DNA of 64,000 nucleotides from Bacteroidales bacterium (GTDB taxonomy: Bacteria > Bacteroidota > Bacteroidia > Bacteroidales > WCHB1-69). Under the pieces are notes generated by a model. It saw nothing but the letters and a program-made list of their open reading frames with translations, searched no databases and was not told the DNA's origin. The translations under genes were made by a program, and so were the position numbers. Below, piece after piece: positions 9,783 to 59,074 of this stretch. The stretch is taken from contig JAGBPS010000022.1 of NCBI GenBank assembly GCA_017633255.1, positions 2,963 through 66,962 of the forward strand, read 5' to 3'. Position 1 is the first letter of the stretch, and every line of letters starts with the position of its first letter.

Positions 9783-9845
9783 GGGTTAGGGATTAGGCGT
9801 TAGTAATTCAATTTTCAGTTTTCAGTTTTCAACTTTCAGTTTTTA
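9783..9845 (-). repeat. Stop-phased heptamer array (9 units) starting at the stop codon of the M23 gene
   Basis: Minus strand from 9845: TAAAAAC TGAAAGT TGAAAAC TGAAAAC TGAAAAT TGAATTA CTAACGC CTAATCC CTAACCC. Confidence 0.9.
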
Positions 9846-13262: not shown

Positions 13263-13325
13263 ATTTTTAATTCTTAGTTTTTAGTTCTTAATTTTCAACT
13301 TTCAGTTTTCAATTTTCAGTTTTCA
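13263..13325 (-). repeat. Stop-phased heptamer array (9 units) starting at the ddl stop codon
   Basis: Minus strand from 13325: TGAAAAC TGAAAAT TGAAAAC TGAAAGT TGAAAAT TAAGAAC TAAAAAC TAAGAAT TAAAAAT. Confidence 0.92.
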
Positions 13326-14303
13326 GTTTTTTAAAGCGTCCATCACCACACTTGTGTAAAAGTCCTTCAAGTTAAACCCACTGGCTGTCAGCTGGGCAGG
13401 AATGATACTCATCGCCGTCTGTCCCGGAATGGTGTTGATTTCGATAAAATAGGGAACTCCGTCCGGCGTGATGATAAAATCGACTCTCACAATTCCGTCG
13501 CAGTTTAAAAAGTGGTAAATCTGCTCCGAATATTTCAGCACCAGTTCATAGCTTTCTTTCGGAATACGGGCGGGGGTGTACATGTCGTGCAGACCGTCGG
13601 TGTATTTGGCTTGGTAGTCGTAGAATTCGTTTTTGGGACAGATTTCGGTCACGGCCAAAGCTCTGGGCTTGCCATCCACCAGGGCCACACCGCAGGCAAG
13701 TTCCTGACCGGGCACCAATTTCTCGATCATCAGCTGATCGTCATATTTGAAAGCCTCTTCCACAGCGGCTTTCACCTCGCTGGGGTTATGCACCTTGGTC
13801 ACCCCCACGCTGGAACCTGAGTTGCACGATTTGATGAAGCAGGGATAGCCACAAACCTTCTCTATCTCGTCCATGTCGATTTTATCGTCGTGGTAGTAAT
13901 GCAGCGACGGAGCAATCGGCACTTTCAGCTCGCGCACAGCCAAATTGCAGAAATATTTGTTGAAGGTCAAAGCCGAACAGAAGCAGTCGCAGCCGGTATA
14001 GGGGATATCGAGCATGTCGAAATAACCCTGGAACTTGCCGTTTTCGCCTGGATTGCCGTGGATGGCAATAAACACCACATCGAAAACGATTTTTTGCCCG
14101 TTGATTGTCAGCGAGAAATCGTTTTTGTCAATCAGGTGTTTCTGTTTTTGCTCATCTGTGTAGCTCCATTCGGTGCCTTTTACATGGATAAAGTAAGGAT
14201 TGAACAAATTTCTGTCTAACTGCGACATGATGTTGTCGCCGCTTCTGAGGGAGACCTCGTATTCGCCGGAATTTCCGCCTGCCAGAACTGCTACGTTTTT
14301 CAT
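13323..14303 (-). CDS. ddl: D-alanine--D-alanine ligase
   Basis: 326 aa. MKNVAVLAGGNSGEYEVSLRSG plus ATP-grasp motifs. Confidence 0.92.
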   Translation of the reverse strand: MKNVAVLAGGNSGEYEVSLRSGDNIMSQLDRNLFNPYFIHVKGTEWSYTDEQKQKHLIDKNDFSLTINGQKIVFDVVFIAIHGNPGENGKFQGYFDMLDIPYTGCDCFCSALTFNKYFCNLAVRELKVPIAPSLHYYHDDKIDMDEIEKVCGYPCFIKSCNSGSSVGVTKVHNPSEVKAAVEEAFKYDDQLMIEKLVPGQELACGVALVDGKPRALAVTEICPKNEFYDYQAKYTDGLHDMYTPARIPKESYELVLKYSEQIYHFLNCDGIVRVDFIITPDGVPYFIEINTIPGQTAMSIIPAQLTASGFNLKDFYTSVVMDALKN

Positions 14304-28774: not shown

Positions 28775-30391
28775 ATGGAAAACAATTATACTGACAACAA
28801 TAGTTCAGCCAACAACCGCATCAAGAATTTCTTCACCATCGCCATCTCGTTTCTGGTGGGTATGACGGTGGCGCTGTATTTTGTTCCCGGTCGGCAAAGC
28901 GGACTGAGCAAGATGCAAAGCAACAAATTGGATGAGGTGGTGAAGTACGTTAACTCATATTATGTGGATACGGTGAACACGGACAAATTGTTTGAAATCG
29001 CCATTAATTCGATGTTGCAGGAGCTGGACCCGCACTCCACCTACGCCAATGCCACTGAAAACAAAGCCATGATGGAGAGTTTGGAAGGGGCTTTTGAGGG
29101 AGTGGGCATCCAGTTCAGCATCATGAACGACACCATTATGGTAATTTCCACGGTCAGTGGCGGTCCTTCCGAAAAGCAGGGCATTCGTGCCGGCGACCGT
29201 ATTGTGACTGTGGATGGCAAGAATGTGGCGGGTATCGGTATTCAGAATGATGAGGTGATGAAGATGCTCCGTGGCAAGAAGAAAACCACGGTGGTCATCG
29301 GCATTTTGCGACAAGGTTCCGTAAATGATTACACGGTCACCCGTGACGTGATACCTACCTATACGCTTGATATTTCCTACATGGTTGATGATCACACGGG
29401 TTATATCAAAATCAACCAGTTTGGGGCTACGACTGCCGACGAATTTGAGGCGGCGATCAAGAAGTTGAAAAAACAGGGTATGACCAAGATGATACTGGAT
29501 TTGCGAAGCAATTCAGGAGGTTTCCTGGATGCCGCTATCCAGATTTGTGACGAGTTCTTGGCCAAGGGGGAGATGATTGTTTACACGGAAGGCTTGCATG
29601 TGCCTACGGACAAGATATATGCCACTCGTTATGGTAATTTTGAAAAGGGTGAAGTGGTGGTACTGATTGACGATTTCAGCGCTTCTGCCAGTGAGATTGT
29701 GGCCGGAGCCATCCAGGATAATGACCGTGGTATTGTGGTGGGTCGTCGTTCTTTCGGAAAAGGACTGGTACAAAGACAGATAGACCTTTCTGACAAGTCT
29801 AGCATCCGTCTGACAGTGGCGCGTTATCATACCCCCAGTGGACGATGCATCCAGCGTGAATACGGCGAGGGAACGGAAGCTTATTACGAGGATTTCATTG
29901 ACCGCTATTATCGTGGCGAGATGAGCCATTCCGATAGCATCAAGTTTGATGAGAACCAGAAATTCACTACCAAGAAAGGACGTACGGTGTATGGTGGTGG
30001 CGGCATTATGCCCGACTATTTCATTCCTTTGGATGAAGACAGCACATTGAATGCTTATTACCAGGTGTTGAATTCATCAGCCATTATCCAGTTTGCTTTC
30101 AATTATGCTACTGATCATAAGGATAAAATTCTGAAACAATTCCCCACGGCTCAAGACTATGTGAAGAAAATGACGGTGAGCAATGATTTACTCAAACAAC
30201 TGCTGAATTTCTATACGCAAAAGACAGGATTGAAGGTGAAAGACCTTAATGCAGAATCTATCAAGGAACTCAAGGTTTGGCTCAAAGCCTTGATTGGACG
30301 TGATGTATACCAAGACGAAGCTTTCTATCCCGTCATCAACAGCACTGACAAAACTTTCCTGAAAGCAGTAGAGCTGACAATTGAAAACTGA
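28775..30391 (+). CDS. S41-family C-terminal processing peptidase (Ctp/Tsp) with PDZ domain
   Basis: 538 aa. Contains GVGIQF, a PDZ domain (GPSEKQGIRAGDRIVTVDG), DLRSNSGG and SASASEI..GKGLVQ. Confidence 0.9.
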   Translation: MENNYTDNNSSANNRIKNFFTIAISFLVGMTVALYFVPGRQSGLSKMQSNKLDEVVKYVNSYYVDTVNTDKLFEIAINSMLQELDPHSTYANATENKAMMESLEGAFEGVGIQFSIMNDTIMVISTVSGGPSEKQGIRAGDRIVTVDGKNVAGIGIQNDEVMKMLRGKKKTTVVIGILRQGSVNDYTVTRDVIPTYTLDISYMVDDHTGYIKINQFGATTADEFEAAIKKLKKQGMTKMILDLRSNSGGFLDAAIQICDEFLAKGEMIVYTEGLHVPTDKIYATRYGNFEKGEVVVLIDDFSASASEIVAGAIQDNDRGIVVGRRSFGKGLVQRQIDLSDKSSIRLTVARYHTPSGRCIQREYGEGTEAYYEDFIDRYYRGEMSHSDSIKFDENQKFTTKKGRTVYGGGGIMPDYFIPLDEDSTLNAYYQVLNSSAIIQFAFNYATDHKDKILKQFPTAQDYVKKMTVSNDLLKQLLNFYTQKTGLKVKDLNAESIKELKVWLKALIGRDVYQDEAFYPVINSTDKTFLKAVELTIEN

Positions 30392-30430
30392 AAACTGAAA
30401 GTTGAAAACTGAAAACTAAGAATTAAAAAT
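30382..30430 (+). repeat. Stop-phased heptamer array (7 units) spanning the ctp stop codon
   Basis: TGAAAAC TGAAAAC TGAAAGT TGAAAAC TGAAAAC TAAGAAT TAAAAAT. The second unit (30389-30391) is the real stop. Confidence 0.92.
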
Positions 30431-30492
30431 ATTTCAACAATTCAACAATTCAACAGTTCAACAATTCAACATTCTTAACTTTTAATTCTTAG
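30416..30492 (+). repeat. 13-bp perfect stem CTAAGAATTAAAA / TTTTAATTCTTAG enclosing a (TTCAACAA)x5 octamer array
   Basis: Stem arms at 30416-30428 and 30480-30492. The loop at 30433-30472 reads TTCAACAA TTCAACAA TTCAACAG TTCAACAA TTCAACAT. Confidence 0.8.
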
Positions 30493-38242: not shown

Positions 38243-38302
38243 GTGTTAGATGACAGGAAACAGTATACTAACCCCTAATCCCTATAACCTAACACCTAGA
38301 AT
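38219..38302 (+). repeat. Heptamer array (12 units) spanning the mlaF 3' end, its stop codon and the whole spacer to the cvpA ATG
   Basis: CAGGTGT CAGGTGT TAGTGAT TAGGTGT(real stop 38240) TAGATGA CAGGAAA CAGTATA CTAACCC CTAATCC CTATAAC CTAACAC CTAGAAT. Confidence 0.88.
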
Positions 38303-38840
38303 GAACTGGCTTGACATCGTCATATTGATTCCCACCGCCTGGTACGCATACAAGGGCTTGAAAAACGGCCTGATATGCGAATTGGCGTCCATTATCGCAT
38401 TGATTCTGGGTGTCTGGGCCACGGTGCATTATTCCGATGTGCTGGCGGCACGAATGGGCGAAGGTCAAACCTATAAAATCATCGCGTTTGCGGGCATTTT
38501 CATCGCCACGCTGGTACTGGTTCATTTTGCCGGAAAACTCATGGAGAAAGTCGTAAAACTGATGATTCCGGGCTTCTGGAACAATTTGGCAGGCTTGCTT
38601 TTCGGTGTGGCCAAGGTAGTTATTGTTTTCAGTGTGCTGCTGATGTTCATTGAGAAAGTGGACACGAAACAGGTTATCTTGAAACCCAAATTCAAAACCG
38701 AATCATTCACCTACAAATATGTGGAACCCGTCGCCCCCTTCCTCACAGACTGGTATTCAGATGTCAGAGGACAGGTGTCAGGGGATAGTGAACGGGAGAA
38801 CGAGGATACAGGGTGCCTCGAAGAGGCAACACCTCAATAA
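38301..38840 (+). CDS. cvpA: CvpA-family membrane protein
   Basis: Track ORF 38250..38840 trimmed to ATG 38301 (MNWLDIVILIPTAWYAYKGLKNG). The last 9 codons (GCLEEATPQ) are supplied by a hairpin repeat element. Confidence 0.8.
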   Translation: MNWLDIVILIPTAWYAYKGLKNGLICELASIIALILGVWATVHYSDVLAARMGEGQTYKIIAFAGIFIATLVLVHFAGKLMEKVVKLMIPGFWNNLAGLLFGVAKVVIVFSVLLMFIEKVDTKQVILKPKFKTESFTYKYVEPVAPFLTDWYSDVRGQVSGDSERENEDTGCLEEATPQ

Positions 38841-38860
38841 CCCCATACGTCAGTATGGGG
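38815..38860 (+). repeat. Hairpin element, copy A (GCCTC-GAA-GAGGC .. AATAA CCCCATAC-gtca-GTATGGGG)
   Basis: Hairpin 1 lies inside the last cvpA codons and hairpin 2 starts right after the stop. A partial second hairpin-1 copy is at 38888-38900. Confidence 0.8.
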
Positions 38861-38924
38861 TGGGTGAACAATCTCTGTCATCGTCAAGCCTCGAAGAGGC
38901 AACACTATCAATAGAAACTGTATA

Positions 38925-39212
38925 ATGAAAAATAACGAGCAACTCCTCAAAGACCTCCTCCAGCAGTTTATCGACAAGTCGGGCAGACAGCGGCTTTACG
39001 ATGAGCGGCGGGTGTTGTCGTTGTGGACTGAGGTGGTGGAGCCGGTGGTTGCCCAAAATACCCAGTGCAAGGACATCAAGAACGGGGTACTGACGGTGAA
39101 AGTCACCAACGCAGCCCTCAGATTTGAATTGTTAGCCCGCAAGAGCGAAATCATCCGCCGCCTCAACGACCGCCTCGGCGTGGAAGTGGTGAAGGATGTG
39201 ATTTTCAGGTAA
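38925..39212 (+). CDS. DUF721 (DciA-like) domain protein
   Basis: 95 aa. LWTEVVEPVVAQNTQCKDIKNGVLTVKVTNAALRFELLARKSEIIRRLN fits DUF721. Confidence 0.7.
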   Translation: MKNNEQLLKDLLQQFIDKSGRQRLYDERRVLSLWTEVVEPVVAQNTQCKDIKNGVLTVKVTNAALRFELLARKSEIIRRLNDRLGVEVVKDVIFR

Positions 39213-39232
39213 AAAATGCAAAACATCAAGCA

Positions 39233-40441
39233 ATGGAGACCTATCGTTTTAGAAAAGGAATACATCGGTTGCCAGGCAAGGTGATACATCATGTGCCGAT
39301 GCCCGAACCACAGGTGGTGGAAGGCCACCAGTCAAGGGTGAAAATCGGCGAGATTTGCAAGCAGTGTGGCTATAAGCAGGTGCTGTTAGTGACTGACGAG
39401 ACTCTCCATAAACTCGGTTACGACCAGGCAATAATGCAATCTCTTGATGCCGCTGGGGTGTCTTGTACCTTGTTTGCCGACATCAACTCCGAACCGACTA
39501 TTGACTTGATTGATGCAGGTCGCGAGGCGGCTTTTGCTTGCCATGCCGAGTGCGTGATTGCATTAGGTGGTGGTTCAGTGCTGGATACCTGTAAAATGAT
39601 TGCCGCTGGTGTGCGCTTGCCCAATCTAAGAACAAGAGCCCTATTACTCAAATTCTTGGTGGTGCCAAGCAAAACCTTGCCGATGATTACCGTGCCTTCG
39701 ACGGCAGGTACGGGCGCAGAGGTAACTGTAGGTGCGGTCGTGACCAATGCACGAGGCACGAAAGGATCCACCGTGATTGTCGGTTTGGATATTACTCATG
39801 TTATCCTCGACAGCGAGCTCACTATCCATGCTCCACAATTGGTAACTGCCGCTTGCGGCATGGATGCCCTCAGCCACGTGGTGGAGGGAACGGTGGGTGA
39901 TGTAGCGGTTGATGTGGAAGACGCCTATTATTCTATAGAGGGTGTGCGGCTGATATTGCAACACCTTCCTGTGGTGATGCGGGAACCGGAGAATATTGAG
40001 TCGCGACTGGCCATGTGCCGTGCTGCTATGTATGGGGGGAATGCCATCAACAAGCAGCTGGCAGGCTATGTGCATGCTTTCGCCCACAGTATTGGAGCTA
40101 TGTATCATATTCCTCATGGACAAGCGATTACGCTGATGATGTTGCCTGTGCTTCGTTACCAGATGAAGGCTTGCCAAAGGAAATATGCACTGCTGGCACG
40201 ATATTGTCAGTTGGCGAATGAAAATACTACTGACCATGAAGCCGCCGAAAAATTTCTGCAAACCATTGCGCGGTTGATTGTGGAATGTGGTATGGATAAG
40301 TTGGTTTCCCCAGTGAAACCAGATGATTTTGAAGCTCTGATTCACATGGTGGCCAAGGATTCCATCAATTATTCAGCCCCCATGACGTTTAGCAACGAGG
40401 ATATAGAACAAGTGTTGAAAATGGTTACAGTTTCTGATTAG
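39233..40441 (+). CDS. Iron-containing (group III) alcohol dehydrogenase
   Basis: 402 aa. Contains IALGGGSVLDTCK, a His-rich metal site (HAFAHSIGAMYHIPHG) and STAGTGAE. Confidence 0.85.
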   Translation: METYRFRKGIHRLPGKVIHHVPMPEPQVVEGHQSRVKIGEICKQCGYKQVLLVTDETLHKLGYDQAIMQSLDAAGVSCTLFADINSEPTIDLIDAGREAAFACHAECVIALGGGSVLDTCKMIAAGVRLPNLRTRALLLKFLVVPSKTLPMITVPSTAGTGAEVTVGAVVTNARGTKGSTVIVGLDITHVILDSELTIHAPQLVTAACGMDALSHVVEGTVGDVAVDVEDAYYSIEGVRLILQHLPVVMREPENIESRLAMCRAAMYGGNAINKQLAGYVHAFAHSIGAMYHIPHGQAITLMMLPVLRYQMKACQRKYALLARYCQLANENTTDHEAAEKFLQTIARLIVECGMDKLVSPVKPDDFEALIHMVAKDSINYSAPMTFSNEDIEQVLKMVTVSD

Positions 40442-40453
40442 AAAATATATCGT

Positions 40454-41398
40454 ATGAAATTCAAACTTAACATTAAAGAGCGTTGGCAGCGTTTCAAGGT
40501 ATGGAGGGAGCAGCCTTCCCAAATGACTCCGTTATCAGAGGATTCTCACGAATGTGAGTGTTGCCATACAAGTTTCCAGGGCAATTACTGTCCCCGTTGT
40601 GGACAGTCGTGGCGTATAGGAAGATATTCTTTTAAAACGGCTATGCTGGGTTTCCTGAATGTGTGGGGACTGGGCAATCGTGGTATGTTTCGCACTATTC
40701 GTGACCTTATCTTGCGTCCCGGTTATATGATCCGCGACTATCTCAAGGGTATGCAGGCAGCCTATTTCCCTCCTTTTCAGATGTTCTTTGTACTGGCGGT
40801 GTTTTCCATTCTTGTAACGCATGGCTTTAATATAAAAATGGAAACCTATGCGGAGGACAAGAGTGTGGAATCCGTTGAGCGGTCTTTGAAGTTTAAAGCT
40901 AATCAAGATGTAACTGCCATTCCCCAAACTTCATCGCAGCAGGAGAACAAGGAAGGCACTTTCCTCAGTGATGAAAATAAAGAAAAAGCACATGATATTT
41001 TTACGGATTTGCTTGTTTATCTATCCTATTTTTCGGTGCGTTTCCCTAGTATTTTTTCTTTGCTTTTATTGATGTCTTTTTCTGGCGTCCTTTATCTGTT
41101 TTTCCGACATTGTCCCAATATCCCAGACCTCCGTTTCTCCGAGTTTTTTGTCTCGCTGGTATATGCCAATAATATGTACAGTATTTATTGCATCATCTTT
41201 GGCTTTCTCCGTCTGTCAATGTTGGTTTCATTAAGCATTTTGCTCGTGATTATTCCGTTAAAACAGTTGTCAGGATACTCATGGATTCGTATCGTTTTGA
41301 AAACCTGTGCGGCTTTTCTGCTGATGGTGCTGCTGGTAGTGGCAATCTTTTTCATCATAGATCTTTTGATAATGGGATATGTGGCGTTGAGGTACTAA
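40454..41398 (+). CDS. DUF3667-like membrane protein with N-terminal zinc ribbon
   Basis: 314 aa. CECCHTSFQGNYCPRCGQ followed by TM helices. Confidence 0.7.
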   Translation: MKFKLNIKERWQRFKVWREQPSQMTPLSEDSHECECCHTSFQGNYCPRCGQSWRIGRYSFKTAMLGFLNVWGLGNRGMFRTIRDLILRPGYMIRDYLKGMQAAYFPPFQMFFVLAVFSILVTHGFNIKMETYAEDKSVESVERSLKFKANQDVTAIPQTSSQQENKEGTFLSDENKEKAHDIFTDLLVYLSYFSVRFPSIFSLLLLMSFSGVLYLFFRHCPNIPDLRFSEFFVSLVYANNMYSIYCIIFGFLRLSMLVSLSILLVIIPLKQLSGYSWIRIVLKTCAAFLLMVLLVVAIFFIIDLLIMGYVALRY

Positions 41399-41430
41399 TT
41401 TTAAAGAATATAAAGATAATTCCTTAAGCA

Positions 41431-41515
41431 GCCTCGAAGAGGCAAGATTTTAATAACCCCGCACAAGCGATAGCGCAGTGTGGGGCACCGCACAAGGCGA
41501 AGCCGAAGTGTGGGG
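41431..41515 (+). repeat. Hairpin element, copy B (three hairpins)
   Basis: GCCTCGAAGAGGC aagattttaataa CCCCGCACaaGCGatagCGCaGTGTGGGG CACCGCACaaggcgaagccgaaGTGTGGGG. Confidence 0.85.
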
Positions 41516-41539
41516 AGTGTGAAACAAAAGAAATAAGCA

Positions 41540-41624
41540 GCCTCGAAGAGGCAAGATTTTAATAACCCCGCACAAGCGATAGCGCAGTGTGGGGCACCTC
41601 ACAAGGCGCAGCCGCAGTGTGGGG
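41540..41624 (+). repeat. Hairpin element, copy C (tandem, 109-bp period with copy B)
   Basis: Identical to B through hairpin 2. Hairpin 3 differs at 4 positions (CACCTCAC..GGCGCAGCCGCA..). Confidence 0.85.
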
Positions 41625-41638
41625 ATAAAAAGAAATAT

Positions 41639-43057
41639 ATGATATACACCGAACAAGAAATCAGCAATATCGTGGCGGCACAGCGGAAATATTTCCGTAC
41701 TGGTGCTACCCTTCCTGTGAAATGGAGAATCCAGCAACTCAAAAAGCTGAAAGAGGCTGTCATTGCCCATGAGGCTGAGTTTGAAGAGGCTTTGGCCAAA
41801 GACCTTGGCCGTAGCAAAGTGGAGGCATATCTTTGCGATGTGGGTCCCATTATTGTGGAAATCAATGAGATGATACATGGTCTGCGCCGCTGGGCACGCC
41901 CCGAGTGTCATTTTAGTGGATTGATGTGCTTTCCGAGCCTGTTCACCAAAGTTTATAAGATGCCTTATGGTGTTTCATTGGTTATCAGTCCCTTTAATTT
42001 TCCGTTCCTACTCACCATTGGTGTGGTGGCGGCGGCCATGTGCGGGGGCAACACAGCAGTCATTAAGGCCAGTTCCAAGTCAGCTGCTTGCACTGAGGTG
42101 CTGAAACGCTTCTTCGCGGAGGTGTTCCCACCCGAATATGTCACAGTGATTGACGGAGGCCATGATGTGGCGGATATGTGCCTGGCTCAGCGCTTTGACA
42201 AGATTTTCTACACGGGCTCGCCTGCAGTTGGTAAACATGTGTTGGCCGAGGCCGCCAAAAACCTGACCCCTGTCGCTTTGGAGTTGGGTGGCGAGACGGG
42301 CAACTGGTGTGTGGTGCGCAAAGATGCCGACTTGAAAGACGCAGCTCACAAAATAGCCTTCTTCAAATTGCTTAATGCGGGTCAGATATGCATCAACATC
42401 AATCAGATTGCGGTGGCCAAAGAGGTTGCGGAGCCGTTTTTGGAGGAATTGAAACAAGCCTTTATTTCGCTCATTGGCGAGGAGCCTGTAAGCAACCCTG
42501 AATATCCCAAACTTATCACGGCGACGGCCTACGACAAGTGTGCCAAGCTGGCTGATGAATACCGCGATCGCATTGTGTTTGGCGGGGTAGGCAACCGTGA
42601 TACGCAGCGCTATGCACCCACTATGATTTATCCCGTGAACATCAATGAGCACATCGTTCAGCACGAGCTCTTCTGTCCATTGCTCCCCATTGTTCCATTC
42701 AATGATGCGGAGGTGGATGCTCTGATGGAAACCATTGCCGACCGTGAGCATCCCTTGGCGATGTATCTTTTTACCAAAGATATGAAGTGGGCAAAGCGCA
42801 CCATGCAAACCCAGCAATATGGTGGTGGCTGTATCAACGAAGTGTGTATCCACATGATGGTGAAGGGAGTGCCTTTTAACGGCACGGGCCATTCCGGTAT
42901 GGGAGCCTACCATGGTGAGTGGGGCTTCCGCGAGTTCACCCATCCGCAAACGGTTCTCAAGGGCAGCACCCGTTTCAATCTTCCCCTCCGCGACCATCCA
43001 TACAGCGGCAAAGCGGAAGCCCTTAAAATGAAGATTCTGAAAGTATTTGAAAAATAG
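41639..43057 (+). CDS. Aldehyde dehydrogenase (class-3-like)
   Basis: 472 aa. ELGGETGNW (catalytic Glu region) and LNAGQICININ (catalytic Cys). Confidence 0.9.
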   Translation: MIYTEQEISNIVAAQRKYFRTGATLPVKWRIQQLKKLKEAVIAHEAEFEEALAKDLGRSKVEAYLCDVGPIIVEINEMIHGLRRWARPECHFSGLMCFPSLFTKVYKMPYGVSLVISPFNFPFLLTIGVVAAAMCGGNTAVIKASSKSAACTEVLKRFFAEVFPPEYVTVIDGGHDVADMCLAQRFDKIFYTGSPAVGKHVLAEAAKNLTPVALELGGETGNWCVVRKDADLKDAAHKIAFFKLLNAGQICININQIAVAKEVAEPFLEELKQAFISLIGEEPVSNPEYPKLITATAYDKCAKLADEYRDRIVFGGVGNRDTQRYAPTMIYPVNINEHIVQHELFCPLLPIVPFNDAEVDALMETIADREHPLAMYLFTKDMKWAKRTMQTQQYGGGCINEVCIHMMVKGVPFNGTGHSGMGAYHGEWGFREFTHPQTVLKGSTRFNLPLRDHPYSGKAEALKMKILKVFEK

Positions 43058-43061
43058 AAGT

Positions 43062-44531
43062 ATGAAAAAGCGGTCCTTTTTGCTTCATTTTTTAGCTTGT
43101 TGTCTCTTATATGGGGCAGTTTTCGTCGCGTGGGCAAATGGCGGGCCGATACGGAAATATTCCGCAATGACTCTTTCACCACAACCTGTGTCGGTATATG
43201 TTCCGGAAGTCCAATTGGTGGACGAATGTGTGAGTTTTACTCCGAATGACAGGTATATGGACGTGGTGGTGCGCTATCTGTTGCACAACCATTCTGACAG
43301 TTCTTTTGATAATCTTCCATACGGTTTTCCTATCGACTATTTTGGCAGCGGTTCGGCCCGATGGGATTATTTGAATGATTATAGTGAGGCAAGGCAGGAG
43401 GTGGGCTGGCGCGATGGTTATATCCGCAATCTTAGCTTTATGTTGGGAGAACGGCAACTTGCATGGCAGTGTTCCCAAGATACCATTATTGTTCCAAAGT
43501 CTTCCGCTACCCATGAAATCTCCCGCCGTTGGTTTTATACTTATTTGACTATTCCGGCTCAAAGTTTTGTGACTCTCGAGGTGCGTTATGAGGTGGAATG
43601 TACTCGAGCGGGGGATGTTAATGGAGTGATGAATAATCTGATTGAGCCTTATTGGGGAACCTTGGATTTTCAGTATGATTTTACTCCGGCGGCTTATTGG
43701 GGCGATGGTTATGCTGACCATTTTTTAATAGTACTTGACACAAGTGAAATTAAGATCACCAATGATGAATTACTTGTATCCGCAGAAAGGAATATCAATG
43801 AACTGCTGATGAAGCAGGATGGTCAATATTGGCGTTATGAGTGCAATCATTTTGCTTTGTCGAAAGCGGTTCCTTTTAACTTGTCTTTTTATTACAAAAA
43901 TGAGGGGTTGATTCAGCAGCCTCTTGACAAGATACTTACCCATCGCATTTCTCCTTCGGAATATAGTATTGAGGTAAGTGGTGTCAACGAGGGGTATCCT
44001 ATCTCAAATCTTAGTGATGCCAATCCCGCAACGGCGGCCATGCTTTTACCTGATAAAAACGACTCTGTTTATATCACTATCCGCTTTCATCAGCCCACAG
44101 TTTTGGAGGGAATGTTATTGCTGAATGGTTATACCAGAAGTGAAGAGGATTATCGAAATTATGCCCGTATTGATAGTTTGCTCATCACTGGCCAATGTTT
44201 CTATGTAACTACTTCTACGAATAATGATGGTGTCAGAGAAACCACTAATAACAGTGTGAAAATGCTGTTTGGAAGAGAGTCTTTCGATGCAAGGAACAAG
44301 AGCTTATTGCCGAGACCAAATAAATATGCGGGCCGTGATCCTGCGGGTTTTGATTGGCAGTCACTTTTCGATAGTGCTATGATGCTTAAATTGTCGGATG
44401 GAATAATGGGGAGAGACAACTATTATTCTGAGCTATATTATTCAGAAATACGCATTGTTATTACATCCACCTCCCCGGGCTTCAAATACAAAGACCTCTG
44501 TTTGTCAGAGATTGTTTTTGTTGGCAGGTGA
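43062..44531 (+). CDS. Secreted hypothetical protein
   Basis: The track ORF starts at TTG 43047. I prefer ATG 43062 (MKKRSFLLHFLACCLLYGAVFVAWA signal peptide), which removes the overlap with the ALDH gene. The N-terminal half vaguely resembles DUF4424, from memory only. Confidence 0.6.
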   Translation: MKKRSFLLHFLACCLLYGAVFVAWANGGPIRKYSAMTLSPQPVSVYVPEVQLVDECVSFTPNDRYMDVVVRYLLHNHSDSSFDNLPYGFPIDYFGSGSARWDYLNDYSEARQEVGWRDGYIRNLSFMLGERQLAWQCSQDTIIVPKSSATHEISRRWFYTYLTIPAQSFVTLEVRYEVECTRAGDVNGVMNNLIEPYWGTLDFQYDFTPAAYWGDGYADHFLIVLDTSEIKITNDELLVSAERNINELLMKQDGQYWRYECNHFALSKAVPFNLSFYYKNEGLIQQPLDKILTHRISPSEYSIEVSGVNEGYPISNLSDANPATAAMLLPDKNDSVYITIRFHQPTVLEGMLLLNGYTRSEEDYRNYARIDSLLITGQCFYVTTSTNNDGVRETTNNSVKMLFGRESFDARNKSLLPRPNKYAGRDPAGFDWQSLFDSAMMLKLSDGIMGRDNYYSELYYSEIRIVITSTSPGFKYKDLCLSEIVFVGR

Positions 44532-44542
44532 TGATGGTGAGT

Positions 44543-44588
44543 TGTCCAACGTAAAGTGCAGTTGAGCATGCTTGTTTCTGGTTGGACA
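44543..44588. terminator. Possible hairpin between convergent genes
   Basis: TGTCCAAC..30 nt..GTTGGACA. Large loop and no clean U-tract. Confidence 0.25.
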
Positions 44589-44606
44589 TTTGTTGGCACA
44601 AATTCA

Positions 44607-44972
44607 TCAAATCCTTAATACGACTTCTGCGGGTATGTCCAGTTTGATGCACATCATACGGGCTGTCTGAAGTGTTGGGTCAGCATTTCCATTGATGATT
44701 TCACTCATTCGTGGAGCACTTATTCCGAGCATCTCTGCCATGGTTCTCTGTGACAGTCGCATATCATGCATGCATTTCCTTAGGTAATTGGAGAGCACTT
44801 CGCGCCCCATTGGATAGTGGATATTCTCATATTCTTCAACTAAGTCTATTAACATATCCAATTCCAAATAGTTGGGGTCATTTGTAGGGGTGTTGTCATT
44901 GACAATGTTGTCAAGCTCTTCAATGCGTCGCATTGCAGCTTGGTATGCTTCTTCTGATTTTAACTGTGCCAT
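44607..44972 (-). CDS. higA: HigA-type antitoxin (HTH, XRE-like)
   Basis: 121 aa. LSQRTMAEMLGISAPRMSEIINGNADPTL is the HTH. Begins 2 nt after the higB stop. Confidence 0.75.
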   Translation of the reverse strand: MAQLKSEEAYQAAMRRIEELDNIVNDNTPTNDPNYLELDMLIDLVEEYENIHYPMGREVLSNYLRKCMHDMRLSQRTMAEMLGISAPRMSEIINGNADPTLQTARMMCIKLDIPAEVVLRI

Positions 44973-44974
44973 GG

Positions 44975-45271
44975 TTATATGTTTTTGATGTCCTTAATTT
45001 TGTCATATTCACTGTGTGTACCTATAAATCTGATAAGCACATGACTTGGGTGGAATTTTATCAGTACAATAAGTCGATAGTCATTTCCTTTTATATTGAA
45101 AACATAGCGCTGATTTCCAACACTTGATACGGTATTGAAGGTGGCTTTAATATCAGCAAAGTTTTTCCAATCAGCTTTTTTTACGGTGTCATACCAGTCA
45201 TTTAAGGGTATGGTAGCGGCAGGATTTGCCACACAATACTCATTCAATATTTTTTTCGAAATCACTCTCAT
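44975..45271 (-). CDS. higB: HigB-family (RelE-fold) mRNA interferase toxin
   Basis: Track ORF 44975..45295 trimmed to ATG 45271 (MRVISKKILNEY..) because the longer start lies inside the -7 box (45293-45300). ADWKNFADIK..GNQRYVFNIKGNDYRLIVLIKF..IRFIGTHSEYDKI is HigB-like. Confidence 0.8.
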   Translation of the reverse strand: MRVISKKILNEYCVANPAATIPLNDWYDTVKKADWKNFADIKATFNTVSSVGNQRYVFNIKGNDYRLIVLIKFHPSHVLIRFIGTHSEYDKIKDIKNI

Positions 45272-45292
45272 GCCCTTTTGTTTTAACAGTTG

Positions 45293-45300
45293 CAAAGATA
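45293..45300 (-). promoter_or_regulatory. -7 box TATCTTTG (higBA)
   Basis: Plus strand reads CAAAGATA. 22 nt upstream of ATG 45271. Confidence 0.6.
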
Positions 45301-45348
45301 CAAAAATATTTCATGTTGCGAAATTATATTTTGTAATATGAAATTCAA

Positions 45349-45406
45349 GGCATCGAAGATGCCAAATCTCAGTAACCCCAGACTAAGTCGAAGACGCAGT
45401 CTGGGG
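45349..45406 (+). repeat. Hairpin element, copy D (diverged sequence, same architecture)
   Basis: GGCATC-GAA-GATGCC aaatctcagtaa CCCCAGACT-aa-GTC-GAA-GAC-gc-AGTCTGGGG. Confidence 0.75.
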
Positions 45407-45552
45407 TAGATGCGAAACTTGTGTATATCCTCCGCGGTGCGTCATGAACTTGCACCGAAGCACTGAACTTGCACACCGCGGAACGGACTCATCATAGCTG
45501 ATGCAAAAAATATGCGGCAGCTGTTGGAGTGTAGGCTACGATGAGTCCGTGT

Positions 45553-46140
45553 TTACAAATCTTCACCATTTGATTGATTATTGTAGTTGTCGTAATACAT
45601 AGTAATAGAATATTTTCCATAGTGTTCTGAAATTGTGAACCACACTACTTTCTTGGAAATTTGCTCAATTTCTTCTATAGATTTATCGTAATAGGAAGAT
45701 GCACCATTGGGACCAACCTGATAAAACCCAGCTTGATATTCTTTTTTGTGTACTGTCATTTCGTATGAAATATCTTCTGATTCACCTATTTCTTGGTTAT
45801 CTTTCATAGGTAGATATTTCTTGTTGTTTTCAAATTGATAACATAATTTGTTGAACCGGATTTTGATTTGGGATTCGCTTGTTTCATTCTTATCAATTAT
45901 GCAAATGCGGTAAACTTTATTATTTTCTGTTACAATTGCTATTAATACATCTTGACCATTGAACTCTCCTTCTAACATGTCAAGAGTTGCATCATAAGTA
46001 AAACCTTTGGCTTTCAATTTCTGAATCATGTCAATTTTTGTTCCGTCAACGGGGATACCAAGAAATTGTGTTACATCGTTTTGTGCAAAAGATGTTGCTG
46101 ACAACAACAGGATTAGTGCAACTATCAAAAATCTTTTCAT
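45553..46140 (-). CDS. Secreted hypothetical protein
   Basis: 195 aa with signal peptide MKRFLIVALILLLSATSFAQ. No family recognised. AT-rich. Confidence 0.6.
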   Translation of the reverse strand: MKRFLIVALILLLSATSFAQNDVTQFLGIPVDGTKIDMIQKLKAKGFTYDATLDMLEGEFNGQDVLIAIVTENNKVYRICIIDKNETSESQIKIRFNKLCYQFENNKKYLPMKDNQEIGESEDISYEMTVHKKEYQAGFYQVGPNGASSYYDKSIEEIEQISKKVVWFTISEHYGKYSITMYYDNYNNQSNGEDL

Positions 46141-58296: not shown

Positions 58297-58366
58297 AAGT
58301 CTAATTGTCAATTGTCAATTATCAATTGTCAACTGTTAACTGTTAACTGTTAACTGTTAACTGTCA
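58297..58366 (-). repeat. Stop-phased heptamer array (10 units) starting at the stop codon of the MurU-like gene
   Basis: Minus strand from 58366: TGACAGT TAACAGT TAACAGT TAACAGT TAACAGT TGACAAT TGATAAT TGACAAT TGACAAT TAGACTT. Confidence 0.93.
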
Positions 58367-59074
58367 ACTATTAAAGTCCTCAAACTTCCCCATATCCTTC
58401 CAGTGACCTTCATTGTGCAGAAAACCTTTAAGCAGGTTTGTTTTCGCCAAATCAATGTATATCGGGGTGATGGACTGTTTCTCGGCAGAGGGAATCTGCT
58501 TAATGAGCTCACGGTGCACCACATGGATGCCGCTGAATGCCAGTTCCTGGTAAGTGGCGGTTTGCAGAGAAATAATCTCCTCGCCAGTCTTGCTGTTGCG
58601 CCAGCCGCAGAGTCTCATCTCTTCGTCAAACAGGAAATAACGGCTGGTCTTGCGCCGTCGTACCGCCAAAGTGGCCAAAGCCCCGTGGTTTTCGTGATAA
58701 GCTATAAGTTGTCCCAGATCGATGTCGGATAGTATATCGACATTGTGCAACAGGATGTTTTCGCTGTCAGCCAGCAGGGGTTCTGCGAATTTCAACCCGC
58801 CACCGGTGTCGCGCAGGTAATCACGTTCGTCGGAAATCTGGATTTCCGCATCATGGGGATGCTCTTTCAGGTATTGGATGATGAGGTCGGGAAAATGGTG
58901 CACGTTGACCACAATGTGCTGGATGCCAGCGGTGATGATTTTGCGCAGCACGTGCTCTAACAGTGGTTCTCCGTGGTATTCAACCAGGGCCTTCGGCTTG
59001 TCGGCCGTGAGCGGATACAGGCGTGTTCCCAAGCCTGCCGCAAATATCATGGCGGAAATATTTTTCATCTTCAA
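58364..59074 (-). CDS. Sugar-phosphate nucleotidyltransferase (MurU-like)
   Basis: 236 aa. MIFAAGLGTRLYPLTADKPKALV is the NTP_transferase signature. Confidence 0.8.
   Translation of the reverse strand: MKMKNISAMIFAAGLGTRLYPLTADKPKALVEYHGEPLLEHVLRKIITAGIQHIVVNVHHFPDLIIQYLKEHPHDAEIQISDERDYLRDTGGGLKFAEPLLADSENILLHNVDILSDIDLGQLIAYHENHGALATLAVRRRKTSRYFLFDEEMRLCGWRNSKTGEEIISLQTATYQELAFSGIHVVHRELIKQIPSAEKQSITPIYIDLAKTNLLKGFLHNEGHWKDMGKFEDFNS

Follow-up and report, generated by a model that had tools for sequence, protein, structure and literature searches.

A 64,000-nucleotide (nt) stretch of DNA from a rumen Bacteroidales bacterium (assembly GCA_017633255.1, contig JAGBPS010000022.1), referred to here as the window, carries an aldehyde dehydrogenase gene preceded by tandem copies of a hairpin element. 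The window corresponds to C26:2963-66962 of a metagenome-assembled genome (MAG) of 2.28 Mb in 44 contigs with 46% G+C; contigs are given with the prefix C, and coordinates without a prefix refer to the window. The tandem repeat, described in an initial annotation and confirmed by Tandem Repeats Finder and sequence reading, has a period of 109 base pairs (bp) and spans 41425-41625, with 1.8 copies and 96% matches. Each copy contains one mini-hairpin (MH), a 13-nt linker, and two hairpins with CCCC/GGGG- or CACC/GGGG-clamped stems. We propose that these hairpins are probably a non-autonomous DNA repeat similar to repetitive extragenic palindromes (REPs), with a Y1 HUH transposase of subclass 1.2, encoded elsewhere in the genome, as the cognate enzyme.

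All units in the window lie on the plus strand. In tandem unit 1, the MH GCCTC-GAA-GAGGC (GCCTCGAAGAGGC, 41431-41443) is supported by sequence, by folding, and by a covariance model, R1, whose match covers C26:44390-44451 (window 41428-41489). It is followed by the linker AAGATTTTAATAA (41444-41456), whose AT and final TAA are conserved family-wide, by a first clamped hairpin of the long form with the inner hairpin GCG-ATAG-CGC (41457-41485), and by a second clamped hairpin, CACCGCAC..GTGTGGGG (41486-41515; sequence and folding). Tandem unit 2 (41540-41624) comprises the MH GCCTCGAAGAGGC (41540-41552), the linker AAGATTTTAATAA (41553-41565), and clamped hairpins at 41566-41594 and 41595-41624; the ATG of the aldehyde dehydrogenase gene (41639) is located 14 nt past its last hairpin. 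Two diverged copies agree with their earlier description. The short-form unit at 38815-38860 (R1 match C26:41774-41826) contains an MH (38815-38827), a linker (38828-38840), and the hairpin CCCCATAC-GTCA-GTATGGGG (38841-38860). It overlaps the 3' end of the open reading frame (ORF) 38250..38840, whose stop codon is the TAA of the linker (38838-38840), and thus encodes the last 8 residues of this ORF. The long-form unit at 45350-45406 (R1 match C26:48309-48372; also supported by folding) sits between two minus-strand ORFs and contains the compensated MH GCATC-GAA-GATGC, the linker CAAATCTCAGTAA, and the long-form hairpin CCCCAGAC..GTCTGGGG. In addition, a terminal half-unit at 38888-38900 contains the MH only, GCCTCGAAGAGGC followed by AACAC.., and lies 24 nt ahead of the ATG at 38925.

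The pattern GCNTCGAAGANGC occurs five times in the window with at most one mismatch, always on the plus strand, while shuffled sequences average 0.84 occurrences and none of 100 shuffles reached five. The recurrence of C-GAA-G loops was noted earlier with a count of five; there are actually seven in the window, namely the five MHs, GGC-GAA-GCC within 41486-41515, and GTC-GAA-GAC within 45376-45406. Folded as single-stranded DNA (ssDNA), three window units have plus-strand z-scores of -4.3, -6.1, and -7.3, and the 109-bp unit reaches -21.1 kcal/mol on the plus strand versus -15.4 on the minus strand.

A search of the 2.28-Mb genome with R1 gave 102 matches at E <= 0.01. The covariance search suggested by the initial annotation thus added about 100 genome copies with pairing kept. 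Its statement that all copies lie on the plus strand holds inside the window, while both strands occur genome-wide. The basic unit is 46-70 nt long; a 13-nt linker connects a 5-bp MH, whose GAA loop is closed by C-G, to an 8-bp CCCC/GGGG-clamped hairpin. The linker consensus is.A.ATCTCAATAA; in an alignment of 42 units (A1), T27, A28, and A29 are invariant, and A20 and T21 are at least 90% conserved. The second hairpin has either a short form with a GNNA tetraloop (GTAA, GGAA, GTGA, GTCA, and others) or a long form with an inserted inner hairpin, and some linkers contain a third small hairpin.

The paired stem changes that had been noticed in the window are real, as judged by covariation in the 42 aligned genome copies. 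MH stems include GCCTC, ACCTC, GTCTC, GCATC, GTGTC, CCCTC, GCCCC, GTACC, and GTGCC, and the 3' arm is always compensated; positions 5, 6, and 8 of the second hairpin also co-vary. Two-sided changes were found in 6 of 13 pairs and amount to 57 cells, compared with about 15 on average in shuffles (0 of 500 as high), and the signal vanishes when the 3' partner is shifted by 1-3 columns. The first unit collection had been selected for pairing, and the retest was anchored on CGAAG...TAACCCC alone. With this anchor, all four outer MH pairs are present in 56 of 60 matches (chance about 2% each), and at least 7 of the 8 second-hairpin pairs in 57 of 60. By strand-neutral counting, the GAA-loop strand contains 35 G-T pairs versus 2 A-C mismatches, which indicates that this is the strand selected to fold.

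A crude ORF map, in which coding sequence takes up about 90% of the genome, places 96 of 97 units in the gaps separating ORFs of 150 amino acids (aa) or more. Where the neighbouring genes share a strand, 35 units are co-oriented with them and 13 antisense; 24 units lie in divergent and 17 in convergent gene pairs. Many units are located just 3' of stop codons, and several copies end 14-40 nt 5' of a start codon. Tandem arrays have periods of 73, 109, 138, and 217 nt, and inverted doublets are also found. This range of intergenic contexts, together with the arrays and doublets, is more readily explained by a mobile DNA repeat than by a dedicated RNA gene. An RNA reading, one of the candidates of the initial annotation, would make the unit a structured RNA (a small RNA gene, or a cis-acting leader or 3' untranslated region element), with the link to a transposase being secondary. 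The strong covariation, the strand-specific and G-U-compatible wobbles, the mostly GNRA-like tetraloops (GTAA, GGAA, GTGA, GAGA), the copies ending shortly before start codons, and the 35 to 13 co-orientation agree with such a role. Against it stand the divergent, convergent, and antisense contexts, the arrays and doublets, and the lack of a consistent visible promoter or terminator and of a T-run, and we consider it improbable.

Terminators, another candidate of the initial annotation, also fit less well. Classical intrinsic terminators are ruled out because no T-run follows the hairpins on the 3' side. A broader version holds that the hairpins belong to the host, act as protein-independent terminators or stabilise mRNA, and spread through nothing but recombination and slippage. 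In its favour, hairpin stability is very high (z-scores to -7), many hairpins lie just past stop codons, slippage could yield tandem copy-number changes, and the REPs of E. coli are known to have secondary terminator and mRNA-stabilising effects. However, there is no U/T tract, the units stand in both orientations relative to the upstream gene, and a pure stability element would not need a conserved linker. Moreover, the units are tied to transposase genes, and whole 300-bp doublets are gained or missing in collinear spacers, as described below. We regard this version as very unlikely. Two other candidates were rejected. CRISPR-like mini-arrays (46-nt repeat, ~27-nt spacer) do not fit, as the "spacers" are duplicated, the repeats vary in a compensatory manner, and the loci are dispersed. 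The Bacteroidetes promoter (TAnnTTTG) is not matched by GACACTTTG, and promoter-like motifs are found 3' of some elements instead.

The genome contains three Y1_Tnp genes (PF01797; 68-74 bits against a cut-off of 23), all located outside the window and all intact ORFs of 150-151 aa. The initial annotation had pointed to RAYT or TnpA(Y1) genes elsewhere in the genome, and these three genes bear this out. RAYT1 (C30:84691-84239) is preceded by three 217-nt tandem blocks, which contain several N5-GAA-N5' MHs and full units (GTGTC-GAA-GACAC, GACATCCTATTAA, CCCCTCAC..GTGTGGGG); its stop codon is followed by an inverted MH and then by an inverted full unit. RAYT2 (C30:204115-203663) has two full direct units on the 5' side and one inverted full unit 3' of the stop codon, and eight dispersed units share exactly its hairpin, CCCCGCAC-GTAA-GTGTGGGG. 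An MH-only unit lies just ahead of the ATG in both genes. MH-only ends followed by GACAC or GGCAT are found directly 5' of the RAYT2 start codon and of other genes, and the arrangement at 38888 in the window (MH, AACAC/GACAC, start codon) is the same terminal half-unit as that 5' of RAYT2. The third gene (RAYT3, locus L003, C21:14245-14700) has the same flanking layout with a different MH family: the repeat is a GCCCC-GNA-GGGGC MH followed by GGCAGGCGGTGGAGCG.AGCG.AACCCCTGC (C21:13900-15150), with four direct copies 5' and four inverted copies 3'. Each transposase paralogue thus seems to have its own cognate repeat. The direct-upstream, inverted-downstream layout was read directly at RAYT1 and RAYT2, and R1 detects units on both sides, converging on the gene, at 12 of 12 homologue loci from 11 genomes. 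Units flanking two Y1 genes in a layout conserved in many genomes support the first candidate of the initial annotation, REP-like ssDNA hairpins serving as substrates of HUH enzymes. The convergent placement around a transposase gene is also a feature that a structured RNA would leave unexplained.

The three proteins carry the HUH motifs DHIH, DHIH, and DHVH and the tyrosine motifs YIIRQKEHH, YIMRQKEHH, and YIRGQENHH (Y---Q--HH). Their best NCBIfam match is an IS200/IS605 transposase model (44-57 bits, cut-off 55, with RAYT2 above it), and the closest solved structures are IS200-family transposases. Close homologues are named "REP element-mobilizing transposase RayT" by JGI and IS200/IS605 family transposase by NCBI; the former is the generic COG name for the Pfam family. 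The classes of Y1 transposases were reviewed by Quentin et al. 2018 (PMC6006769); there, subclass 1.2 is sister to IS200 subclass 1.1 and is described by DH[IV]H, Y---Q--HH (YIKNQKEHH-like), a mean length of 148 aa, low copy number, occurrence in Bacteroidetes and Cyanobacteria, no insertion sequence (IS) properties, and generally no typical terminal IS200 structures. The enzymes agree with this subclass in the HUH and tyrosine signatures, length, low copy number, and presence in Bacteroidetes. Judged by motifs against the table of that paper, each enzyme appears to belong to the IS200-related subclass 1.2, as a Y1 HUH transposase with a single domain and a length of only about 150 aa. Unlike in that description, the genes here are flanked by cognate hairpin repeats that are dispersed across the genome. 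Our literature search found no paper tying subclass 1.2 or Bacteroidales to dispersed repeats, and none joining RAYT or REP to Bacteroidales repeats or to Acido-Lenti-1, an Rfam family considered below.

The relationship to IS200 raises the possibility that the Y1 genes and their flanks are ordinary autonomous IS200-type insertion sequences, with the units being decayed ends or miniature inverted-repeat transposable elements (PATE-like). The top NCBIfam match, the nearest structures, and the sister position of subclass 1.2 to 1.1 (PMC6006769) agree with this possibility, as do the doublets, which resemble internal-deletion derivatives, and the 5-12 Y1 gene copies found in some Bacteroidota. 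However, the three Y1 genes are just 70% and 37% identical to each other and so are not recent copies, and RAYT1 is found at one shared locus in four species. Inverted repeats of a single unit type form the flanks, and no tnpB-sized ORF adjoins the Y1 genes. There are about 30 units per Y1 gene, and the diversity of their compensated stems implies that they have been maintained for a long time. With these diverged genes, one-unit inverted flanks, and no adjacent tnpB, the loci do not qualify as IS200/IS605 insertion sequences, and we find this explanation decidedly unlikely.

The dispersed units show signs of turnover. Eight or nine convergent inverted doublets were found, with 208-265 bp between model matches and about 300 bp including the conserved outer ends. 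Their layout is unit, spacer, MH, CTACA..TGTAG, inverted MH, spacer, inverted unit, that is, the RAYT1 flanks minus the gene. The flanks of 18 loci were searched in two close relatives, G095 and G071. The doublet at C18:80323 is absent in both, that at C7:11340 occurs in G095 but not in G071, that at C28:79450 is absent in G071, and that at C22:4620 is present in both. In alignments, the empty sites of the relatives contain short heptamer-repeat spacers only, and the spacers are otherwise collinear. Such variation in copy number and presence at the same locus among close relatives is also a point against a structured RNA.

At the aldehyde dehydrogenase locus, a unit lies 3' of the upstream gene's stop codon in six genomes of the genus. 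The orthologous spacer contains one clamped hairpin in G071 and G050 and in the first unit of G095, two in this genome, and three in G037, where they stand behind a single MH. In G071 and G050, the unit is separated from the aldehyde dehydrogenase gene by two extra genes, which encode a 413-aa membrane protein and an iron-type alcohol dehydrogenase. In G087 (L117, C58), a unit stands behind the ortholog of gene 40454..41398 and passes into the sequence of the window's 38815 unit and then of the gene at 38925, and the synteny breakpoint is exactly at the 5' edge of the MH. A ~97%-identical strain, represented by contigs from runs labelled RNA, has one 109-bp unit and skips 41516-41627. The tandem pair at the aldehyde dehydrogenase gene is an old insertion, and hairpin and unit numbers there are still changing. 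Contigs from gut-metagenome runs labelled polyA "transcriptomic" (X25/X26) extend without a break from the upstream gene across a single unit into the aldehyde dehydrogenase gene at about 97% identity, without strand information, which fits co-transcription or DNA carry-over. Such contigs speak for an RNA, yet they are strandless assembler contigs that possibly derive from DNA. A secondary RNA-level effect of the units, for example on a co-transcribed aldehyde dehydrogenase gene, may exist alongside the DNA repeat that we propose.

Conservation was assessed in 121 family genomes, which are phylogenetically non-independent MAGs and in which a count of 44 units per genome means at least 44. Units are present in 64 of these genomes, and a Y1 gene homologue in 81. 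At least five units are found in 36 of 39 genomes with a close Y1 homologue (E <= 1e-40) versus 12 of 82 others, an association among related MAGs without phylogenetic correction. A scan with one genome per species gave 80 further loci, nearly all from "Bacteroidales bacterium" MAGs of uncultured rumen, omasum, caecum, or faecal origin. In most of them, units converge on the gene: by a hit-table count, about 48 have a plus unit within 160 nt upstream of the gene, and about 51 have a minus unit within ~150 nt downstream. Among the three Y1 genes, synteny was established for RAYT1, whose locus is syntenic in G037, G050, and G092 (other species of the genus) with flanks 85-98% identical and differing numbers of flanking units. 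This indicates that the gene is inherited vertically and stays in place, as a hopping IS would not.

The units also resemble a known Rfam family. Rfam scans of the window (gathering threshold and E-value) gave only one tRNA and noise, leaving no known Rfam RNA family as a candidate there. RF01687 (Acido-Lenti-1) has no match in the window at the gathering threshold, and none at E <= 5 in 38600-45700. In a permissive scan of twelve element loci, RF01687 was found on the reverse complement over all 46 positions at 23.5-29.5 bits. The top score in the genome, 35.3 bits at the RAYT2-flanking units, is below the gathering score of 37. In the RF01687 model, a 13-nt linker joins an 8-bp hairpin, whose loop has 4 nt, to a following 5-bp hairpin, whose 3-nt loop is UUC; this is the architecture of our unit on the opposite strand (UUC complements GAA). 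Conversely, R1 recovers bona fide copies of RF01687, with coinciding coordinates but opposite strand, for example GCCCC-GAA-GGGGC, GACATATCTTAA, CATCAGGC-GCTA-GCCTGATG. From their architecture, the window hairpins, although below the Rfam threshold, appear to be the same kind of element as Acido-Lenti-1.

Rfam describes RF01687 as a small RNA gene of Acidobacteria and Lentisphaerae of unknown function, with the UUC strand modelled. The family was reported in these two phyla, sometimes near group II introns, and judged likely RNA on covariation (Weinberg et al. 2010, PMC2864571); it is also described near protease genes in Tannerella in the literature, and Tannerella forsythia is a reported carrier. 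The Rfam seed sequences come from Lentisphaera araneosa and Koribacter versatilis. In the flanks of the Weinberg alignment, Lentisphaera copies lie within larger composites that contain more GAA/UUC MHs in both orientations. The Rfam class (Gene; sRNA) and this covariation verdict favour an RNA, while the strand preferred by the wobbles in our units is the GAA strand, opposite to Rfam's, and the genomic context points to a DNA repeat.

RF01687 matches at or above the gathering score occur in 25 of 301 sampled Bacteroidota genomes, and 17 of 20 RF01687-positive Bacteroidota genomes have Y1 gene homologues. Among 30 further Bacteroidota Y1 genes fetched, 27 encode YI.NQ..HH or a close variant; a protein search returned only close Bacteroidales relatives. 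Of 19 Y1 loci from other Bacteroidota with 1.5-kb flanks, six contain RF01687, four of them at or above the gathering score, and at L159 the matches lie on both sides of the Y1 gene in convergent orientation. The chance of a match per 3-kb locus is about 1-2%, given at most ~20 scored matches per 4-Mb genome. With about even confidence, we suggest that subclass-1.2 Y1 transposases may recognise the Acido-Lenti-1-type unit as their ssDNA repeat, in analogy to REPs, and that the strand with the function would be the one that Rfam does not model. Enzyme and unit would then form a second, independent partnership of the REP/RAYT type, inside the IS200 branch (class 1) rather than the class 2 branch, across Bacteroidota and possibly Acidobacteria and Lentisphaerae.

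REP/BIME and REPIN elements are reportedly paired with RAYT (TnpA-REP) transposases. The system described here is similar in its low-copy Y1 HUH gene at a fixed locus with inverted short hairpin repeats at the flanks; in a repeat that is dispersed ~100-fold, extragenic, and present as singlets, tandem clusters, and inverted doublets; in repeat subtypes that match the gene flanks (the third gene has its own repeat family); and in a structure kept via compensatory change. It differs in that the enzyme belongs to class 1 (subclass 1.2) rather than class 2, and in that the unit consists of two hairpins with a TAA-CCCC consensus junction. The hairpins would work like REPs or REPINs paired with a RAYT-type gene, yet they are not canonical members of that family.

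IS200/IS605 elements such as IS608 have ends formed by two different hairpins on the same strand, defined cleavage tetranucleotides, and near-identical copies per genome. IS200/IS605 elements (IS608, ISDra2) and PATEs share with our system a related catalytic domain and, as expected by analogy, an ssDNA hairpin substrate. In contrast to IS200/IS605, a single unit in inverted copies makes up the flanks here, and the gene copies have diverged, with RAYT1 syntenic across species. A bias to the lagging-strand-template strand is a further likeness. Among 54 clusters with a single orientation (44 contigs), 36 have the G-rich strand as the one that folds (Fisher p = 0.012), and the window, with positive skew and all copies on the plus strand, fits this trend; relative to GC skew, the bias with replication direction that the initial annotation had raised is thus present and moderate.

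By analogy with IS200/IS605 TnpA and RAYT/TnpA(REP), the GAA-loop strand may fold when single-stranded, for example as the lagging-strand template. The transposase would recognise the hairpins and the conserved linker, and would cut and rejoin the GAA strand. Units and ~300-bp inverted doublets could spread in this way, tandem copies could grow or shrink, and occasional rearrangements could arise at units. From these parallels we infer that the enzyme would bind and cut the units, where it would cut them, and that ssDNA, not RNA, would be the substrate.

Several observations weigh against a REP-like repeat with a subclass-1.2 transposase. The proteins score 26-32 bits against the NCBIfam model REP_Tyr_transpos (NF047646), far below its cut-off of 80, and the class 2 motif Y---NP is absent from the Y1 enzymes. 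Subclass 1.2 is entered as "REP: no" in the published table (PMC6006769). The units have neither the GTAG/CGTC head nor the single 20-40-nt imperfect palindrome of canonical REPs, and their GNRA-like tetraloops, G-U-compatible wobbles, and 35:13 co-orientation are also compatible with a role as RNA. The bias towards one replication strand is modest. Because the spacers are fast-evolving heptamer repeats, exact ends, cleavage site, and target site are unreadable from the empty sites. Presence or absence was seen for doublets, while single units are mostly conserved in position and vary in number. The co-occurrence of units and genes is an association, and the 12 of 82 genomes that hold at least five units without a close homologue run counter to it; two of these 12, G036 and G103, have no listed Y1 match. 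Finally, units face away from the gene in a handful of the 80 homologue loci.

We note additional sequence features near the units. A companion module, CCGCGGTG..ACTTGC.CCGAAGCACT..CACCGCGGAA, followed by a small hairpin (CATC.TAGCTGATG) and an A-run, lies at 45430-45512 on the plus strand, and it is found ~20 nt 3' of at least six units (window 45430-45512, C5:14632, C7:28407, C25:10751, C30:77182, C15:18150). It has no Rfam match at 45430-45512 and may be separate from the hairpin unit. A riboswitch, ribozyme, or leader, considered for the hammerhead-like CUGAUGA/GAAA in the companion CGCGG modules, was rejected, with no Rfam support and no consistent stem II. A related module, TCGCGGCAC..CCTGATGA..TGCCGCGAAAG, occurs 3' of other units (C21:37316, C22:23514, C24:26798, C24:28770); at C21:37316, G095 has an orthologous spacer that is shorter by ~117 nt, which would fit the absence of both module and unit. 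Many intergenic spacers in the window are packed with 7-8-nt tandem words (TTAGGGN, TGTCAAC, AATTAGCA, CGTCTCCA, and others), for example at 2441-2549, 9807-9843, 13264-13331, 30374-30471, and 58306-58374; arrays of this kind also fill the empty doublet sites of the relatives. An array of at least six units at C36:3723-4348 (minus strand) has a 138-nt period with two 69-nt units per period and ends in an MH-only unit 29 nt ahead of the start codon of a gene beginning MNNIEEQIKHLTEEINQHNYNYY, which we take to resemble NAD-dependent DNA ligase. A ~50-nt repeat, AAATTCCCCTTCTTTTAGAAGGGGTGCCCGAAGGGCGGGGTAGTGAC, at C18:76930-76985 forms the left flank of the unit at C18:76987 and has more than 15 near-identical copies in G095 and G071.

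REP/RAYT is the textbook case of persistence of a transposase with a non-autonomous repeat in bacterial chromosomes; the link has so far been to Y1 enzymes of class 2 and to palindromes of the GTAG/CGTC type, and Proteobacteria supply most cases. Our finding sets Y1 subclass 1.2, said in 2018 to have neither repeats nor IS properties, in a context at the level of function, and offers a testable explanation for an abundant Rfam family of unknown function. The unit is a defined substrate for the question of how a minimal HUH enzyme reads two hairpins and a linker. In rumen Bacteroidales MAGs, the units mark insertion, deletion, and rearrangement junctions as well as contig breaks, and one unit supplies a stop codon, which matters for assembly and annotation of these genomes.

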